A stretch of 64,000 nt of DNA from an uncultured Candidatus Saccharibacteria bacterium (lineage in GTDB: Bacteria; Patescibacteriota; Saccharimonadia; Saccharimonadales; JAGQNJ01): contig CAZBPY010000003.1 of assembly GCA_964493895.1 (NCBI GenBank), positions 15,176-79,175 of the forward strand. The letters run 5' to 3'. Shown here piece after piece: positions 16,782-62,632 of the stretch. Numbering within the stretch: the first letter of the stretch is position 1; each line of letters opens with the position of its first letter. The notes beneath the pieces were generated by a model that worked only from the letters and a program-made list of their open reading frames with translations, was not told the DNA's origin and ran no database searches. The position numbers and the translations under genes were made by a program.

Positions 16782-16858
16782 GGGGTATTAGCTCAGTTGG
16801 CTAGAGCGCTTCGCTGGCAGCGAAGAGGTCAGCGGTTCGAGTCCGCTATACTCCACCA
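16782..16858 (+). tRNA. tRNA-Ala (anticodon GGC)
   Basis: Cloverleaf with G3:U70, anticodon loop cuGGCag and encoded CCA. Confidence 0.85.
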
Positions 16859-21148: not shown

Positions 21149-21706
21149 TTAAAACTTAACGTCAGTCGGTTTTTCAATATTGGCTTGTTCAGCCTCGTCA
21201 ACTTCAAAAAATTCACGAATTTTAAAGCCCATCATGCCAGCAAAAACACTGGTGGGAAAGACCTGGATTTTAGTGTTTAGGTCGCGGACAGAACCGTTAT
21301 AGAATCGCCGCGCAGCCTGGATTTTATCTTCAGTGTCAACCAGTTCGGCCTGCAGTTCTTTGAAATTGTCGCTAGCCTTCAGATCTGGATAGTTCTCGGC
21401 CACGGCAAACAAACTTTTCAAAGCTTGCTCGAATTGGTTATCAGCCTTGGCGGTTTCCGCCGGCCCTTGAGCTTTGGTTATGGCACTACGAGCCTTGGTG
21501 ACTTCTTCAAAAACTCCCTTTTCATGCTTGGCATAACCCTTAACGGTGTTGACTAAATTTGGAATTAAATCACCTCGGCGCTTTAACTGAACTGTAATGT
21601 CGCTCCAGGCCTCATCGACTCGAATTTTGGCTCGAATCAAGCCGTTATAAATCAGCACCAGTATCAGCACTAATGCAGCTGCGGCGATGCCAATGTATAT
21701 CCACAT
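21149..21706 (-). CDS. lemA: LemA family protein
   Basis: N-terminal TM segment plus the LemA core. Start moved to MWIYIG (ATG 21706, SD aGGGGAG) because the longer ORF would overlap the tRNA-Leu gene. Confidence 0.8.
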   Translation of the reverse strand: MWIYIGIAAAALVLILVLIYNGLIRAKIRVDEAWSDITVQLKRRGDLIPNLVNTVKGYAKHEKGVFEEVTKARSAITKAQGPAETAKADNQFEQALKSLFAVAENYPDLKASDNFKELQAELVDTEDKIQAARRFYNGSVRDLNTKIQVFPTSVFAGMMGFKIREFFEVDEAEQANIEKPTDVKF

Positions 21707-21736
21707 AATTTTCTCCCCTGTTAAAACTGTAGTTTC

Positions 21737-21745
21737 ATTATAGCA
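21737..21745 (-). promoter_or_regulatory. Extended -10 TGCTATAAT for lemA-htpX
   Basis: About 30 nt upstream of the lemA ATG, between tRNA-Leu and lemA. Confidence 0.4.
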
Positions 21746-21770
21746 AAATCGCCGGCTGAAAAACAGAAGT

Positions 21771-21857
21771 TGGTGCGCGGGGCGGGACTCGAACCCGCAC
21801 GCCCAGTTGGGCATTTGATTTTAAGTCAAACTTGGCTACCAGTTACAACACCCGCGC
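21771..21857 (-). tRNA. tRNA-Leu (anticodon TAA), long variable arm
   Basis: 87 nt. Acceptor gcgcggg/cccgcgc, anticodon loop cuUAAaa, encoded CCA. Confidence 0.85.
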
Positions 21858-22349
21858 TCTCTGTAATCTTAACGCAACTTTCTTATTTTTGCCACGGTGT
21901 GTTGGTTGCAGACTGTGACAATTGGGACATAATATTCTTAGGTTTACTAACCTATTGTCTGTGGGATCACCATTGATGTGATCTAATTCCACTGGGATTC
22001 TACCGTCTATACTTCTTTCTGCCCATCCACAAATTTCACATTTTGGATTTTTTAATCCATCTTTGTAGAGACGGAGCTTTAGGGTATGGCTTTGGACTTT
22101 GCTGCCTTTTCGAAGCCACTTTTTTGTAGGTGTAATAGGAAGATTAAATTTATACAATCCGCCCTTGTTCCAGCCTCGACCGGTAAAATGATGGGTTGAG
22201 AGTTTTAGTTCAGCAACTCGTTCGGAAACTTGTTTATAGTTGCCGCCTGCCGGAATAAGGCCAATCTTTTTTATTACGGCTCGGTAACTAGTGCAAGTAG
22301 CCACCGCTTTCACTAATTGCTCGTCCGTCCAGCTGCGTTGCTTCGGCAT
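21843..22349 (-). CDS. HNH endonuclease (homing-endonuclease-like) with an N-terminal HTH-like region
   Basis: ELDHINGDPTDNRLVNLRILCPNCHS HNH/zinc motif. The 3' end overlaps the 5' end of tRNA-Leu(TAA) by about 15 nt. Confidence 0.75.
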   Translation of the reverse strand: MPKQRSWTDEQLVKAVATCTSYRAVIKKIGLIPAGGNYKQVSERVAELKLSTHHFTGRGWNKGGLYKFNLPITPTKKWLRKGSKVQSHTLKLRLYKDGLKNPKCEICGWAERSIDGRIPVELDHINGDPTDNRLVNLRILCPNCHSLQPTHRGKNKKVALRLQRARVL

Positions 22350-22643
22350 ACAGCCAGAGTACCAAACACATATTAAATACCTATTAAACGTGAATAATTT
22401 GGAGGCGCGTACGAGATTTGCACTCGTGTATAAGGTTTTGCAGACCTTTGCCTAACTCCTCGGCCAACGCGCCGCATAATATCCCTGTTCATTGTAACGT
22501 AAACCCCTGTTCAAGAAAATCGCTAAATATAGACCATTACATCCGACGACAGCCGGTTTTTTATGATCTAACCTAGCCCCTCTTCGCGAATTGCTCGGCA
22601 ATATCTTTATTTATAACCCAGAGGTTGGTTTGCCATCTCTGTC

Positions 22644-23021
22644 TTAGCCTTCGACTACCACCTCAAACCCGCCGTAAGCCATCTTGGTCATGTCGCTGGG
22701 CATCTCAAAGTTATCACCCACGTCCATGGCGTTCATCTCGGCCATGACCTTTTTGTTAACCTCATCGCGATGAGCTTTAGATTTGAAAATAATAAATGAA
22801 AACCAGATATTTTCGTCGGCATTGGCCCCGGCCATTTCCGTGAAAGCCCGCGATTTCACCGGCCCCATTTCTTGCTGCCCGAGATCGTCACCGCGGCATT
22901 CAAAATACTGCAAGGCACCATGCTTCATCCAAGAATCACGCCCCATTTCAGCCATTTTCTGATACTCTGCCTCTTTACCCTTGGGCACCACCAACACGAA
23001 TCCATCTACATACTTACCCAT
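22644..23021 (-). CDS. DUF1428 family protein
   Basis: MGKYVDGFVLVVPKGKEAEYQKMAE...WMKHGALQYFEC resembles DUF1428. Start chosen at the ATG at 23021. Confidence 0.55.
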   Translation of the reverse strand: MGKYVDGFVLVVPKGKEAEYQKMAEMGRDSWMKHGALQYFECRGDDLGQQEMGPVKSRAFTEMAGANADENIWFSFIIFKSKAHRDEVNKKVMAEMNAMDVGDNFEMPSDMTKMAYGGFEVVVEG

Positions 23022-23125
23022 TACTCTACTCCCCCTCACTTGGCCTTTACTCTCCTAGTTTAGCATTTAGCGCAAACGATAGGCAGCCAAATATCTGCTG
23101 GGTTTACTTTGGCTCGCCTGTCGTC

Positions 23126-23212
23126 TGGTGCGCGAGAGAGGACTTGAACCTCCACGCCCCTAGGGGCACAGGCCCCTCAAGCCTGCGCGTCTACCAATTC
23201 CGCCACTCGCGC
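23126..23212 (-). tRNA. tRNA-Leu (anticodon GAG), long variable arm
   Basis: 87 nt. Acceptor gcgcgag/ctcgcgc, anticodon loop uuGAGgg, CCA. Confidence 0.85.
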
Positions 23213-23308
23213 TTACCTGTTAATAATACGAATTTACCTCTGGAAAAGCAACCTCCCCAAAGCGAGCCATATTGCTTATGATTAAAATTTGTGTTATAAT
23301 TAGAAGAT

Positions 23309-24118
23309 ATGGTATCGCCAGAGGTGAAACTGACAGGTGTACTGCCAGGCAAACAACCGCCTTTTATATCGGCTGCTGATTATGAACATCTGGCCAAAAT
23401 ACAAACTTCCAAAATTATTCCGACTCAACTTTCCAGCGATCCAATTCGCTTTACTCATGATTTGGTACGCTTCCCGGTTGATAAAAAACTTCCAAAGCCA
23501 TTTGCCAAGTGGCTGGTTTATTGGGCTTCGCATGATACCGAACTAATTGACCATACACCAGATGATTTGCAACGCTTCCCAGGCATAAAGGATGCTCAAC
23601 AAACTCCATTGGAAGCTGGAGGGCGATGGTTTTGGGGAACAATTGCCCGTGCCAAGGAGACCAAGAAGGGTGCACATAAAGGTCCGGTTTCAGCATTTGG
23701 TTGGGCTCATCCGCTAAAAGGAGCTTTGACCAGTCGCGACATCCGGCAGCAAAGCAAAGAATTTGGGCTGAATATCAAGAGGACGGCCACGATTGCTATG
23801 CGGGTTACAGACGGCTTTCGGCATAGCGGTCTATTTACTCCATTTATGTTAGGCTCACTTTATGATTTTGTGCAGAGGACAACTGAAGGCAGTGAACAAC
23901 TCTATACAGATGCAGCCTTTCGAGTGTCATCGACAGAGAGGATATCTTTTCCGTTTCTGGAAAATGGAAGAGTAAGACAAATTTTGCGACCAGAGATTAT
24001 GGGCGGTAACCAAGGTGGGGTGCTTTATGCGCATTATGATCTGCGGAAATTGCTTGAATGCGAGCCGCGCGACCTCGGGTTGGAGCATCTGACCGAAGAT
24101 GATATAATAGCAAGCTGA
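23309..24118 (+). CDS. Hypothetical protein (269 aa), orphan, flanked by tRNA genes
   Basis: Long ORF with coding-like composition and no recognisable motif. Confidence 0.5.
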   Translation: MVSPEVKLTGVLPGKQPPFISAADYEHLAKIQTSKIIPTQLSSDPIRFTHDLVRFPVDKKLPKPFAKWLVYWASHDTELIDHTPDDLQRFPGIKDAQQTPLEAGGRWFWGTIARAKETKKGAHKGPVSAFGWAHPLKGALTSRDIRQQSKEFGLNIKRTATIAMRVTDGFRHSGLFTPFMLGSLYDFVQRTTEGSEQLYTDAAFRVSSTERISFPFLENGRVRQILRPEIMGGNQGGVLYAHYDLRKLLECEPRDLGLEHLTEDDIIAS

Positions 24119-24125
24119 AACTCAT

Positions 24126-24202
24126 GGGTTGTTAGCTCAGTTGGCTAGAGCACCTCGTTTACACCGAGGGGGTCGGGGGTTCGAGTCCCTCACAACCCAC
24201 CA
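24126..24202 (+). tRNA. tRNA-Val (anticodon TAC)
   Basis: Cloverleaf, anticodon loop uuUACac, CCA encoded. Confidence 0.85.
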
Positions 24203-24294
24203 TCTATTGTCGCTGGTAACGGTTCGTCAAAATTCTCACATCAGTGAGATTTTTTGTTTGCTAGAGTGGGGGTATTAAGGAAGGGACGATACCG

Positions 24295-24558
24295 ATGCCA
24301 ACAGGAGATCAATTTCGCCAAGCAGCTACAACAGCTAAACAAGCAGCCGAAGCTAAAAAAGCCGAAGTCCAGCGGATGCGTGAGACTGTAGCTCAGATGA
24401 AGCGCGACATGGAAGATCTGCATAAAACGGCTGACAGTTGGGAGCAGGAAATTAAACAGTTAGACAATCAGATTCGAGATCTTGAAGATCAGGCCCGCGA
24501 GGCCGATGAAGCCGAGCGCCGCCTTGAGTCTCAGCGACAGCAATACGATATCCGTTAG
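24295..24558 (+). CDS. Hypothetical small coiled-coil protein (87 aa)
   Basis: AAGGAAG SD 6 nt upstream. Heptad-rich, charged sequence. Confidence 0.5.
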   Translation: MPTGDQFRQAATTAKQAAEAKKAEVQRMRETVAQMKRDMEDLHKTADSWEQEIKQLDNQIRDLEDQAREADEAERRLESQRQQYDIR

Positions 24559-24646
24559 CCGGCCCAGGCCTGCATATACGTTGATTATCCAGAGGTAATA
24601 CGATAGAATACAGGGGTCTTTTGACATCGCTGTCTGGCGGCCGCTC

Positions 24647-24722
24647 GGCGCTATAGCTCAGTTGGTAGAGCAGAGGCCTGAAGAGCCTTGTGTCCCTGGT
24701 TCGAGTCCAGGTGGCGCCACCA
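24647..24722 (+). tRNA. tRNA-Phe (anticodon GAA)
   Basis: 76 nt, anticodon loop cuGAAga, CCA encoded. Confidence 0.85.
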
Positions 24723-24732
24723 TTTTAAGTTT

Positions 24733-24809
24733 GCGGGTGTAGCTCAGTTGTTTAGAGCGCATCCTTGCCAAGGATGAGGCCAGGGGTTAGAGTCCCCTCA
24801 CCCGCACCA
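24733..24809 (+). tRNA. tRNA-Gly (anticodon GCC)
   Basis: Anticodon loop uuGCCaa, CCA encoded. Confidence 0.85.
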
Positions 24810-24835
24810 AAGATTTCTAACTATGCTAATCTGTA

Positions 24836-24863
24836 AAACACCGAGAAAATCGGTGTTTTTTCG
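24836..24863 (+). terminator. Rho-independent terminator after the tRNA-Val/Phe/Gly cluster
   Basis: aacaccg-agaaaat-cggtgtt followed by TTTTTCG. Confidence 0.6.
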
Positions 24864-25000
24864 TTTAACCCATAGGGGACTTAAACTAACTAATAGAATA
24901 ACTATATGATGGACGAGCGAATAGAGCGTGGAAAATGGCTACTCAATAATGTTAAACACGCAGCAATGGCCACTGTGAGACACAAGGTCTACTCGTCTGA

Positions 25001-26662
25001 CTAGCTGCGTGGCAAGTGGTCTGCCAAATGATCCATGTTGTATTCGTCTCGCAGTTGAGCGACCTGCTTGGCCCGAGTTGCGCCAATCTTAACACCAGGA
25101 TTTAAAATTCCGTGCGGATCAAATATCTCTTTGACCTTTTCGAACAGGCCGTAGACTTGCTCACCAAAGAGGTCTTTCAGGTATATGGCCCTTAGCCGGC
25201 CATCGTTGTGTTCTCCGGCTGTGCTGCCGCCCATTTCAATCACCATTTTGTAGTAGTCGTCCATCAATTTGAAAACTGTCTGGCGATCGGCGACTTGCGA
25301 CAAATCTAGAAACGGTTGCAGATGAAGATTTGCGTCAGCAGCATGCCCCCACAGAGCCACCTTCAGGTGATACTTGTCAAACAATTTATAAATGCTCTCA
25401 ACAAATTCTTTGAATCTAGTCACCGGCACAATTCCATCCTCGACAATCGGCAGAGCCTTTTTCTTGCCCGAGACATGGGTTATCAGTGAAGCCGCCGAGT
25501 GGCGAATCTTCCACAGCTCATCACGTTTGTGATAATCAGAAGTCGTCTCGATATTATTAGTGTATGGCTTGACAATTTTGTGCAGCCGCTTGGTCTGTTT
25601 CTTTTGAATGCTGGTCTTAGCGTCATCAAATTCAACCAGCATGACAATCGCCGGATAAGGCGGCTCTATAAGGTTCTTCAGCTGATTTGGGTTGGTCTCG
25701 GCAATAAAGTCCAACAGGTGCCTGTCAACCATCTCGATTGCCGCTGGATTCAGCTTGCGAATTTCAGTCACTACATGGCTGGCATCCTCGATGTTATCAA
25801 AGCCAATCACCGTCAAAGTCCGCTGTGTATTATTAGGAATAACTTTTAGCTGAGCCGCTGTGACAATGCCCAGCGTCCCCTGCGATCCGACAATCAGCGG
25901 TGTCAGATCGAACACGCCGTGCTTTTGCTTGACATTGCTCAGGTCATAGCCAGCCGAATTTTTGGAGGTGTTCAGTTGGATTTGTTTGATCAGTTCGGAA
26001 TGGTCAGTTAAAAGATTATCCAGCTCGCGGTAAATCTCGCCCTCGAAGTTGGTCTGGCCTTTCTTTTTGTTGAGCTCGCGCCTCGACAATGGTCGGGTTT
26101 CAATCACTTCGCCATTGGCAAGGACCACCCGCAGAGCCTCGGTGTAACCGCGGGTATCGCCGTATTTGACCGTTCTCTCGCCGGCAGTGTTATTGGCCAC
26201 TGCTCCGCCTAGGGTAGCGTAATCGATTGAACTTGGAAACGGCGGCAAGAAGTAGCCGTGAGTTTTCAAAGTGTCTTGCAGGTTGCGGTAGTTAAGACCG
26301 GGCTGAACCAAGACCATGCCGTGCCGACTATCAAATTCCAGGAGTTTATTCATATGAGCCGGAAAAACCATGACGATTCCTTCGCCTATGGCTGCTCCGC
26401 CCTGGTCAGAACCCCGGCCACGGGCCGTGATCGGCAAAACCCGACCCCTTTCAGCTAGCTGCCAGGCAAACTTAGCGGTCTTGCGGACATCGTTTTCGTT
26501 CTCTGGGTAAACCACAAACTGAGGCAAAACTTCAAATACCCCGCCATCAGTCGAAAAATACTTCCGAGCTGTCATTGAGGTGATGACCTCGCCAACTAAA
26601 TGCTCTTGCAAATAATGCGCAATTTTACTCATGTCTGATCTCGGCTTTCCCTCCTCAGCCAA
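25001..26662 (-). CDS. FAD-binding oxidoreductase (GlcD / D-lactate dehydrogenase-like, FAD-linked oxidase family)
   Basis: FAD-binding PCMH domain (RGRGSDQGGAAIGEGIVMVF) and the C-terminal FAD-linked oxidase domain. Confidence 0.8.
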   Translation of the reverse strand: MAEEGKPRSDMSKIAHYLQEHLVGEVITSMTARKYFSTDGGVFEVLPQFVVYPENENDVRKTAKFAWQLAERGRVLPITARGRGSDQGGAAIGEGIVMVFPAHMNKLLEFDSRHGMVLVQPGLNYRNLQDTLKTHGYFLPPFPSSIDYATLGGAVANNTAGERTVKYGDTRGYTEALRVVLANGEVIETRPLSRRELNKKKGQTNFEGEIYRELDNLLTDHSELIKQIQLNTSKNSAGYDLSNVKQKHGVFDLTPLIVGSQGTLGIVTAAQLKVIPNNTQRTLTVIGFDNIEDASHVVTEIRKLNPAAIEMVDRHLLDFIAETNPNQLKNLIEPPYPAIVMLVEFDDAKTSIQKKQTKRLHKIVKPYTNNIETTSDYHKRDELWKIRHSAASLITHVSGKKKALPIVEDGIVPVTRFKEFVESIYKLFDKYHLKVALWGHAADANLHLQPFLDLSQVADRQTVFKLMDDYYKMVIEMGGSTAGEHNDGRLRAIYLKDLFGEQVYGLFEKVKEIFDPHGILNPGVKIGATRAKQVAQLRDEYNMDHLADHLPRS

Positions 26663-26726
26663 ACCATTACCATCTTACCCACTATAATACCACGACCACA
26701 ATCCTACATAAACATAAGCTGGAGAT

Positions 26727-26813
26727 TGGTGCGGATGAGAGGACTCGAACCTCCACGAGTCGAAGCTCACTAGCTCCTGAAGCTAGCGCGTCTACCAATT
26801 CCGCCACATCCGC
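26727..26813 (-). tRNA. tRNA-Leu (anticodon CAG), long variable arm
   Basis: 87 nt. Acceptor gcggatg/catccgc, anticodon loop uuCAGga, CCA. Confidence 0.85.
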
Positions 26814-62243: not shown

Positions 62244-62632
62244 TGGTGGAGCTGCAGGGAATTGCACCCTGGTCCGCGGGATTATTCGGTTAGTCGTCTA
62301 CAGGCTTAGTTTGTTTTCGATACTTGAAGCCGGGCCTAAAAACAAACAAAATAGCACGCGACTCGCAGTCCTAAAGTCTTAAGTTGCTTTACGGATCATA
62401 AAGCAACCGCAGCCAGAAAATATGGCACGCTCTAGGCCTATCCGGCGTCAGACTAGGCGCGGCTGTAGGCAATTAAGCTACAGCTGGTGCGAAAGCTAGA
62501 GCTTTGAACGGATTCAAAGCAGCTAGGCGTTCACTAATAGATGTTTTTGCATCTAAAAAAACTGCCTATAACGCTGACAAGCGGCCTGCGGATCTAACCA
62601 ATAAAGTCCTACGTCGAGCTAAAATCAGCCCC
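62244..62632 (-). ncRNA. ssrA: tmRNA (SsrA), 389 nt; predicted tag AKTSISERLAALNPFKALAFAPAVA
   Basis: 5' GGGGCUGAUUUUAGCUCGACGUAGGAC (compare E. coli GGGGCUGAUUCUGGAUUCGACGGGAU). tRNA-like 3' end with T-arm cagggUGCAAUUccctg, acceptor CAGCUCC-A-CCA and a G3:U Ala determinant. Resume codon GCA at RNA position 83. Tag ORF 62473..62550 ends UAA. Confidence 0.8.

Follow-up and report, generated by a model that had tools for sequence, protein, structure and literature searches.

Free-standing nucleases encoded within tRNA clusters are already established. SegB of phages T4 and T6 belongs among the free-standing homing endonucleases of the GIY-YIG type; it is encoded in a tRNA cluster and cuts inside tRNA genes (PMC13096335, citing Brok-Volchanskaya 2008, PMC2330249); through its action the tRNA region is inherited preferentially, and genes homologous to it often lie adjacent to tRNA genes (PMC13096335). 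Similarly, HNH genes are the most widespread coding genes in the tRNA arrays of Mycobacterium chromosomes, plasmids and mycobacteriophages, where they have been read as indications of horizontal transfer and of a reshuffled tRNA repertoire (PMC5966550, PMC6582537). Here, we describe a tRNA-rich island of 5 kb (positions 21771-26813) within a 64-kb stretch of DNA from a Candidatus Saccharibacteria bacterium (64,000 nucleotides (nt), hereafter the window), in which seven tRNA genes are interleaved with five protein genes, one of which encodes an HNH endonuclease of 168 amino acids (aa) (21843-22349, minus strand) and overlaps the gene for tRNA-Leu(UAA) (21771-21857, minus strand). While the island itself is ordinary in kind, its HNH gene belongs to a family whose genomic association with tRNA-Leu(UAA) is firmly shown below, and from which we infer a homing-type mechanism. 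This link was absent from an initial annotation of the stretch, which had been made from the sequence alone. A survey of open-access text found neither an HNH family tied to tRNA-Leu(UAA) nor a tRNA-linked homing gene in Patescibacteria, and the family is apparently undescribed.

The locus resembles that of SegB in that the nuclease gene is inserted between tRNA genes and shares their orientation. Additionally, the microhomology that the SegB gene displays at its 3' end to the start of the tRNA gene beside it is comparable to the overlap observed here, where the last 15 nt of the HNH open reading frame (ORF), including its TAA stop codon, lie within tRNA-Leu(UAA), the stop codon coinciding with tRNA positions 13-15. 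However, SegB has the GIY-YIG fold, is known from phages only and has no single tRNA partner, whereas the present protein is an HNH enzyme of predicted activity, resides on bacterial chromosomes and is associated with the housekeeping tRNA-Leu(UAA). With respect to the mycobacterial arrays, the present family is represented in the Gordonia phages GodonK and Smoothie, where its members likewise overlap a tRNA; those arrays, in contrast, comprise tens of accessory tRNAs on mobile DNA, while the tRNA genes of the island appear to be the ordinary genome copies, and no specific tRNA partner is named for the array HNH genes (PMC5966550, PMC6582537), unlike the present family, which is bound to one tRNA across phyla.

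The HNH protein is matched by Pfam HNH_3 (marginally, at 25.2 bits against a cut-off of 24.8) and by phrog_10822 ('HNH endonuclease', 4e-42, residues 1-160), with no GIY-YIG match in Pfam or PHROGs; its likeness to SegB is confined to lifestyle. The HNH motif is present as D123-H124, N136 and H145, of which H124 and N136 are found in 158/158 relatives and H145 in 157/158, and the zinc-binding CxxC pairs (C104, C107, C141 and C144), characteristic of the zinc-finger HNH subclass, are invariant in all 158. The structural model (predicted local distance difference test score (pLDDT) of 87) comprises an N-terminal three-helix bundle, which appears DNA-binding-like, a linker and a C-terminal beta-beta-alpha-metal core (strands 121-124 and 137-140, helix 142-146). 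When compared with solved structures, it is best matched, albeit weakly, by McrA, Cap5 and PacI in their HNH domains; a search of PDB sequences with the family profile returned McrA only (E = 0.84), and thus no close solved relative. Given the invariance of the catalytic and zinc residues among the 158 relatives and the confident model, the enzyme looks functional. Its codon usage is foreign-looking, with a GC content at third codon positions (GC3) of 0.38 and a codon score of -0.03 against a genome mean of 0.30 (standard deviation 0.11). The family is large, with 4,977 proteins retrieved at E <= 1e-10 in a protein search and more than 500 matches in each of a metagenome and a viral collection in an alignment search. 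An exact-protein look-up returned no record for the HNH product or for those of the neighbouring LemA and HtpX genes.

The genomic neighbourhood of the family was considered in the best 80 metagenome relatives and in 80 relatives from viral contigs. Among the metagenome relatives (54-67% identity), tRNA-Leu(UAA) lies directly downstream of the HNH gene in 74/80, co-oriented with it in 72 of these, and the six remaining sequences extend no more than 236 nt beyond the gene. On the upstream side, the neighbour varies, being tRNA-Cys (in either orientation), tRNA-Gln, tRNA-Gly, tRNA-Leu(UAG), tRNA-Arg or no tRNA at all. The intact HNH ORFs stop inside the tRNA in 37/65 cases (57%) and 0-15 nt before it in a further 23/65. 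The viral relatives (38-52% identity) display a different arrangement, as in 38/80 the HNH gene follows tRNA-Leu(UAA), its ATG being located 23-77 nt (mode 45-47) after the tRNA. Cultured phages also carry the family in their tRNA arrays, namely GodonK (tRNA-Leu-HNH-tRNA-Glu), Smoothie (tRNA-Ser-HNH-tRNA-Asn) and S-CRM01 (tRNA-Leu-HNH). Finally, a class of longer proteins (272-292 aa) from Kofleriaceae-like genomes and genomes labelled Acidobacteriota abuts tRNA-Leu(UAA) in 5/5 sampled cases, four of them convergent. The occurrence of three geometries with one tRNA partner indicates that the association is not a single inherited arrangement.

Two further observations were made on these relatives. 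The longer class carries approximately 110 extra residues with faint matches to HTH_Tnp_1 and DUF8073_C, and its neighbourhood (loci L216-L222) is conserved, comprising genes for an alpha/beta hydrolase, a Ser/Thr kinase, a tRNA U5-methyltransferase-like protein and an MnmA-like protein. In locus L060 (1736-2776), a tandem duplication of approximately 600 nt, encompassing tRNA-Leu(UAA) and an ORF of approximately 100 aa, directly follows the HNH gene, the two tRNA copies being identical at 85/86 positions; it recalls SegB-driven segmental amplification, and the contig contains ambiguous bases.

The position of the HNH gene was subsequently compared among related genomes. When species-representative genomes were searched with LigA, the neighbouring DNA ligase, about 27 loci were obtained from Candidatus Saccharibacteria, the group to which the window belongs, the closest of which (L049) shares 82% LigA identity with the window. 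In Saccharibacteria, the usual upstream neighbour of tRNA-Leu(UAA) is tRNA-Cys(GCA) (22400-22473, minus strand, in the window). The spacer between the two is empty (8-35 nt) in six species, measures 14 nt in L049 and holds the HNH gene in five species including the window (542 nt), in which the gene lies free-standing between an intact tRNA-Cys and an intact tRNA-Leu(UAA), both scoring as full tRNAs, and thus on the 5' side of the latter. The presence of the HNH gene is accordingly polymorphic at a single fixed position, which is filled in the window and precisely empty in some relatives. The gene was detected in only 5/20 comparable genomes, which agrees with its initial description as homing-type. 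The same spacer contains an unrelated 129-aa gene with a weak Nuc_deoxyrib_tr match (E = 0.009) in three species (L005 5709-6275, L010 384-860 and L031 2653-3081), a 431-aa glutamate-dehydrogenase-like gene in L008 and a sigma-70/anti-sigma pair in L013; this slot, therefore, accepts diverse cargo. In L049, the region to the left of tRNA-Cys is wholly different, with genes for topoisomerase IB, a Tag glycosylase, a DUF2779-like protein and others. The tRNA-Cys of L049 (7410-7488) is 82% identical to that of the window, is not called by ARAGORN and has an aberrant-looking T-arm region (GACGGGGGCAGTACCCGT).

The variability extends across the island. LigA-mem310-HtpX-LemA is conserved in all of the approximately 27 loci, and the tRNA genes of the island, its FAD-linked oxidase gene and its DUF1428 gene recur near LemA in relatives, with their order and orientation shuffled; the oxidase gene is a recurrent neighbour of tRNA-Leu(CAG). 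For instance, L019 reads Gly-Phe-Val-Leu(GAG)-FAD oxidase-Leu(CAG), the four leading tRNA genes falling within 678 nt, while L024 reads SBP5-Leu(CAG)-FAD oxidase-Leu(GAG)-Val-LemA. The tRNA-Val and tRNA-Leu(GAG) genes, which are adjacent and co-oriented in L012, L019 and L024 (with a gap of 9 nt in L012 and 23 nt in L024), are inverted relative to each other in the window and separated by 913 nt carrying a gene for a 269-aa protein, as compared to 9-73 nt in relatives. Likewise, the spacer that holds an 87-aa ORF measures 444 nt in the window and 21 nt in relatives. Neither of these two genes has a tblastn match in any of the 27 related loci. The region is thus a synteny breakpoint, composed of native parts and lineage-specific fillers, with slot-by-slot variation between tRNA genes in addition to inversions. 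The initial annotation had viewed the island as an integration hotspot or a mobile-element remnant that might collapse to a plain tRNA array in relatives. Each of the 27 loci departs in gene content and order, so that a hotspot of gene turnover is retained and a fixed gene order with the two orphans as core genes is clearly not what is found; a single integrated element is not retained, as the variation does not take the form of one insertion. Some relatives possess compact tRNA arrays at the places where the window carries the 269-aa and 87-aa genes.

The allele of tRNA-Leu(UAA) was next considered in relation to the HNH gene. The D-loop of the window's tRNA reads GGTAGCC and represents what is here termed the G-type allele: this D-loop base is G in 5/5 HNH-linked tRNA-Leu(UAA) genes and T in 14/15 HNH-free ones (Fisher p = 4e-4, on raw counts). 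In the LigA tree, the genomes with an HNH gene are dispersed, and the sister of the window, L049, lacks the gene. Despite a LigA identity of only 61%, L022 shares 96% identity with the window over the first 27 bases of tRNA-Leu(UAA), as compared to 63-74% for closer HNH-free relatives. Furthermore, the separation between the two allele classes declines with distance from the HNH gene, from 12.7 to 6.7 and 2.0 identity points, values that are reached by 9, 61 and 579, respectively, of 15,504 label sets. The adjacent tRNA allele thus appears to follow the presence of the HNH gene and not host relatedness, a correlative pattern of the kind expected from co-conversion.

The leader of the HNH gene in the window (50 nt between tRNA-Cys and the ATG, 22350-22399, minus strand) lacks a Shine-Dalgarno sequence and contains degenerate copies (AGGTATTT and TGGTACTC) of a motif, GGTAnAC, which among tRNAs is found only in tRNA-Leu D-loops. 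Among the leaders of bacterial HNH genes, this motif is present in 29/70 versus 0.8 expected, and its reverse complement in 18/70 versus 0.7 expected. The two frequently form an inverted pair with a spacing of 23-24 nt. In 9/67 leaders, part of tRNA-Leu (positions ~1-35) was found as a longer copy of significant similarity. Bacterial leaders often have, 6-9 nt ahead of the ATG, a box resembling TATAAT, and in many leaders of the family the GGTAnAC inverted repeats bracket such a -10-like box. These data suggest that the DNA encoding the D-arm is the recognition element, and that the leader copies may be target remnants, operators, or both. A simple rule by which the leader motif would equal the carrier's own D-loop was rejected, as the two differ in 20/25 loci; this mismatch is easier to reconcile with a copy of a foreign or ancestral target than with a self-copy. 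The intron-encoded I-TevI reportedly represses its own expression by way of an operator resembling its homing site (Edgell et al. 2004), and the likeness lies in a target-like sequence within the enzyme's own promoter region. I-TevI is, however, an intron-encoded GIY-YIG enzyme, whereas the present gene is free-standing, its binding and repression are putative, and the window copy displays only degenerate motifs. Just upstream of tRNA-Cys, a promoter-like site (TTTACG-16-TATTAT, 22476-22503, minus strand) that is a consensus match only, within a set of matches whose count does not exceed shuffle expectation, represents a possible promoter for a Cys-HNH-Leu transcript.

Overall, the island is probably a native, rearrangement-prone tRNA neighbourhood with slots filled by each lineage, to which is added a free-standing homing-type HNH gene tied to tRNA-Leu(UAA). 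In such a neighbourhood, the short spacers between tRNA genes would act as slots that lineages fill with different small genes, in this case those for the HNH endonuclease, the GNAT-like 269-aa protein and the 87-aa coiled-coil protein. The N-terminal helical domain of the HNH enzyme would recognise the DNA encoding the tRNA-Leu D-arm (GGTAnAC), and the HNH domain would nick or cut an allele without the HNH gene. Repair from the HNH-bearing copy, with the conserved tRNA genes as homology arms, would then introduce the HNH cassette together with the 5' portion of the tRNA gene next to it, and the co-copied D-loop variant (G for T) may protect the carrier allele. As the cassette would form part of the tRNA transcription unit and its reading frame would end at the tRNA or within it, the essential single-copy tRNA would be left undisrupted. 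A bolder extension of this proposal, which we advance tentatively and regard as possible though doubtful, is that a previously undescribed, large homing-endonuclease family (~5,000 members at E <= 1e-10) has specialised on the essential tRNA-Leu(UAA) and has colonised this gene in Patescibacteria, in other bacterial phyla and in the tRNA arrays of phages, with three or more geometries of insertion. Under this extension, the enzyme would read D-arm DNA, keep a target copy within its promoter as an operator or footprint and drag a resistant allele with it; where the two genes overlap on the same strand, its expression would be tied to tRNA processing, in which RNase P cleavage of the tRNA precursor would remove the HNH stop codon.

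Several observations weigh against a homing gene at this locus. In no pair of loci is HNH identity higher than that of LemA or of the tRNA, and this comparison lends no support to recent horizontal transfer; in the absence of such excess identity, the sample fits a long vertical residence accompanied by losses. The association between allele and HNH gene rests on five HNH-positive genomes and on raw counts that ignore kinship. The D-loop rule is not universal, since 22/67 HNH-linked tRNAs in the wider metagenome set are T-type, and in L049 the G-type allele occurs although the HNH gene is absent. The window's leader, as mentioned above, has only the degenerate motif copies. The many intact copies across the whole phylum are unusual for a purely selfish gene unless it re-invades, homing leaves the arrival of the 269-aa and 87-aa genes in their slots unexplained, and the cleavage, target site and transfer event that homing implies are all putative. 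Alternatively, the HNH gene may be a long-standing resident passed on vertically, and either domesticated for a host function or simply trapped. It would stay beside tRNA-Leu(UAA) only because two genes that touch or overlap leave no room for a breakpoint, and its patchy distribution would reflect repeated losses with no homing involved. The divergence of the HNH gene, which tracks that of LemA and tRNA-Leu with no pair showing excess HNH similarity, the intact ORFs with catalytic residues invariant in nearly all copies, as under host-level selection, and the physical coupling of both genes by their overlap are consistent with this explanation. It appears unlikely, nevertheless, in view of the three geometries (upstream and co-oriented in bacteria of the Candidate Phyla Radiation, downstream in phages and mostly convergent in the longer class), the variable upstream neighbour, the precise 14-nt empty site in the closest relative and the scatter of HNH-positive genomes on the host tree, as well as the adjacent tRNA segment that follows HNH presence in a gradient away from the gene, the tRNA-Leu D-arm sequence in the leaders and the atypical HNH codon usage.

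Two other explanations invoke mobile elements. Close family members abound in phage tRNA arrays, and the HNH gene and tRNA-Leu(UAA) might thus constitute a phage-derived module, serving either the recombination and amplification of tRNA genes or the cutting of incoming phage DNA that carries tRNA-Leu(UAA). SegB acts in the former way for tRNA-Tyr in T6, which thereby escapes tRNA-cleaving defences, and is described as 'frequently associated with tRNAs' (PMC13096335), and the duplication of tRNA-Leu(UAA) and the ~100-aa ORF in L060 would be in keeping with such a role. However, L060 is a single case on a contig with ambiguous bases, other chromosomal loci hold a single tRNA-Leu(UAA), the role is proposed by analogy with SegB, and the protein-family scan revealed no defence genes nearby, although no search aimed at defence systems was made; we consider such a module improbable. 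The explanation with the least to commend it, which is largely refuted, is that implied by the initial annotation, namely that the island is a degraded remnant of one or more integrative elements that lost their integrase and left the orphans and the HNH gene as cargo. Islands and prophages that encode an integrase insert at the 3' end of tRNA genes and are flanked by direct repeats, and the island shares with them its tRNA association and lineage-specific content, including differences in gene content between relatives and the atypical codon usage of the HNH and 269-aa genes. However, as had been noted at the outset, no integrase is visible: the ORFs of 50 aa or longer in the island were all accounted for, with no integrase or recombinase gene among them. 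The direct repeats of a tRNA 3' end (attL/attR) that had been proposed as a check were not found either, the tRNA repeats of at least 14 nt being whole paralogous tRNAs only. The GC content of the island is ordinary and inside the window's range, the tRNA genes, FAD oxidase and DUF1428 genes are native components that recur among relatives, the variable genes are distributed over separate slots between intact tRNA genes as opposed to one contiguous insert, and the HNH gene is found on the 5' side of tRNA-Leu, whereas integrases use the 3' side. A degraded integrative element was consequently rejected, with neither a recombinase ORF nor a partial tRNA duplication to support it.

Phage tRNA-cluster nucleases, with SegB as the example, have recently been shown to shape tRNA inheritance and immune evasion, and a homing-type HNH gene tied to tRNA-Leu(UAA) would extend this idea to an ordinary single-copy tRNA of the ultra-small Patescibacteria and of other bacteria. 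It predicts that a D-loop reading GGTATAC is cut while GGTAGMC is left uncut, and could yield a new sequence-specific nuclease. Additionally, it would offer a route for the exchange of tRNA alleles and of small genes between tRNAs in genomes that are poor in mobile elements. For annotation purposes, tRNA clusters with interleaved orphans in reduced genomes should not be equated with a decayed prophage or island.

The remaining features of the island are as follows. ARAGORN identified seven tRNA genes, all of which were confirmed by Rfam (53-72 bits against a gathering score of 29), while Rfam revealed no other RNA genes in the island (E <= 0.1); the six tRNAs originally reported had omitted tRNA-Cys(GCA). 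Their strands follow the pattern - - - + + + -, i.e. three blocks, and do not alternate as had been stated. As the other 59 kb of the window contain one tRNA and one tmRNA only (ARAGORN), the clustering is real. To the right of tRNA-Cys lie the DUF1428 gene (22644-23021, minus strand; 1e-26, with 72% identity in relatives L019 and L049) and tRNA-Leu(GAG) (23126-23212, minus strand), followed on the plus strand by the 269-aa ORF (23309-24118), which ends 7 nt before tRNA-Val(UAC) (24126-24202), an intrinsic-terminator-like hairpin with a T-run (24234-24257), the 87-aa coiled-coil ORF (24295-24558), tRNA-Phe(GAA) (24647-24722) and, 10 nt further on, tRNA-Gly(GCC) (24733-24809). The latter is followed by a second terminator-like hairpin with a 10-bp stem and a T-run (24835-24869, plus strand), the FAD-linked oxidase gene (GlcD/YdiJ-like, 25001-26662, minus strand; 1e-48 and 3e-32), the start of which is uncertain (26662 or 26632), and tRNA-Leu(CAG) (26727-26813, minus strand). 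The initial HNH, DUF1428 and FAD-linked oxidase assignments were borne out by these matches, and all five protein genes score best in their annotated frame under a codon model trained on the long ORFs of the window. A 32-aa ORF (24906-25004, plus strand) between the tRNA-Gly terminator and the FAD oxidase gene was considered as a gene remnant and dropped, no similarity having been found in the fetched loci. A contig from an independent sequencing run is 100% identical to positions 23098-24191, and the order of tRNA-Leu(GAG), the 269-aa ORF and tRNA-Val is therefore not an assembly artefact.

The 269-aa and 87-aa products, previously listed as orphans, were absent from all related loci, as stated above, yet the former is not entirely without kin. 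It has no match in Pfam, PHROG or NCBIfam and matches only itself in a word-indexed search, whereas an exhaustive HMMER search of 1.8 billion representatives detected two faint relatives of similar length (1e-7 and 1.6e-5). The three sequences have the motifs W-L-x-Y-W, GRRW and W-x-H-P-L in common. The contigs of both relatives carry no tRNA and no functional context; the nearest (P0002; L050 1477-2247, L051 58-828) is located upstream of an alpha/beta hydrolase gene and near a PLD-like gene on short contigs, and the absence of tRNA genes from these indicates that the 269-aa family is not itself tRNA-linked. The AlphaFold model, built from three sequences, is weak (pLDDT 58.7, predicted template modelling score 0.64), and on this low-confidence model 50/50 of the best PDB matches are GNAT acyltransferases (best E-value 1e-5, TM-scores of 0.3-0.6). 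The canonical acetyl-CoA motif (R/Q-x-x-G-x-G/A) was not found in the protein, while a loosely similar R165..G169.R171..G174 is conserved in the three-sequence alignment. It is thus tentatively viewed as a divergent GNAT-like protein, encoded with an atypical codon usage (GC3 0.40, score at the 5th percentile of the genome). The 87-aa ORF has no homologue among 5.8 billion proteins and only coiled-coil noise below all thresholds against Pfam, PHROG and NCBIfam; it displays genome-typical codon usage and a plausible ribosome-binding site.

Several minor observations concern the surroundings of the island. The longest LemA ORF (window 21149-21814, minus strand, 221 aa) extends into tRNA-Leu(UAA); its true start is probably the ATG at 21706 (MWIYIGI...), since the LemA domain begins only at residue 69. 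On the far side of LigA, tRNA-Ala(GGC) is encoded at 16782-16858 (plus strand), and it is found near LigA in most relatives at a variable distance and orientation. The Saccharibacteria LigA-mem310-HtpX-LemA synteny was also seen in L007 (labelled Limnocylindrales) and L017 (labelled Acidoferrum), with a LigA identity of 63-69%, and these contigs are probably mis-binned Saccharibacteria. Finally, the tmRNA gene of the window is located at 62244-62632 (minus strand) and specifies the tag peptide AKTSISERLAALNPFKALAFAPAVA; if tRNA processing does strip the HNH stop codon, one may speculate that tmRNA would be the rescue system involved.

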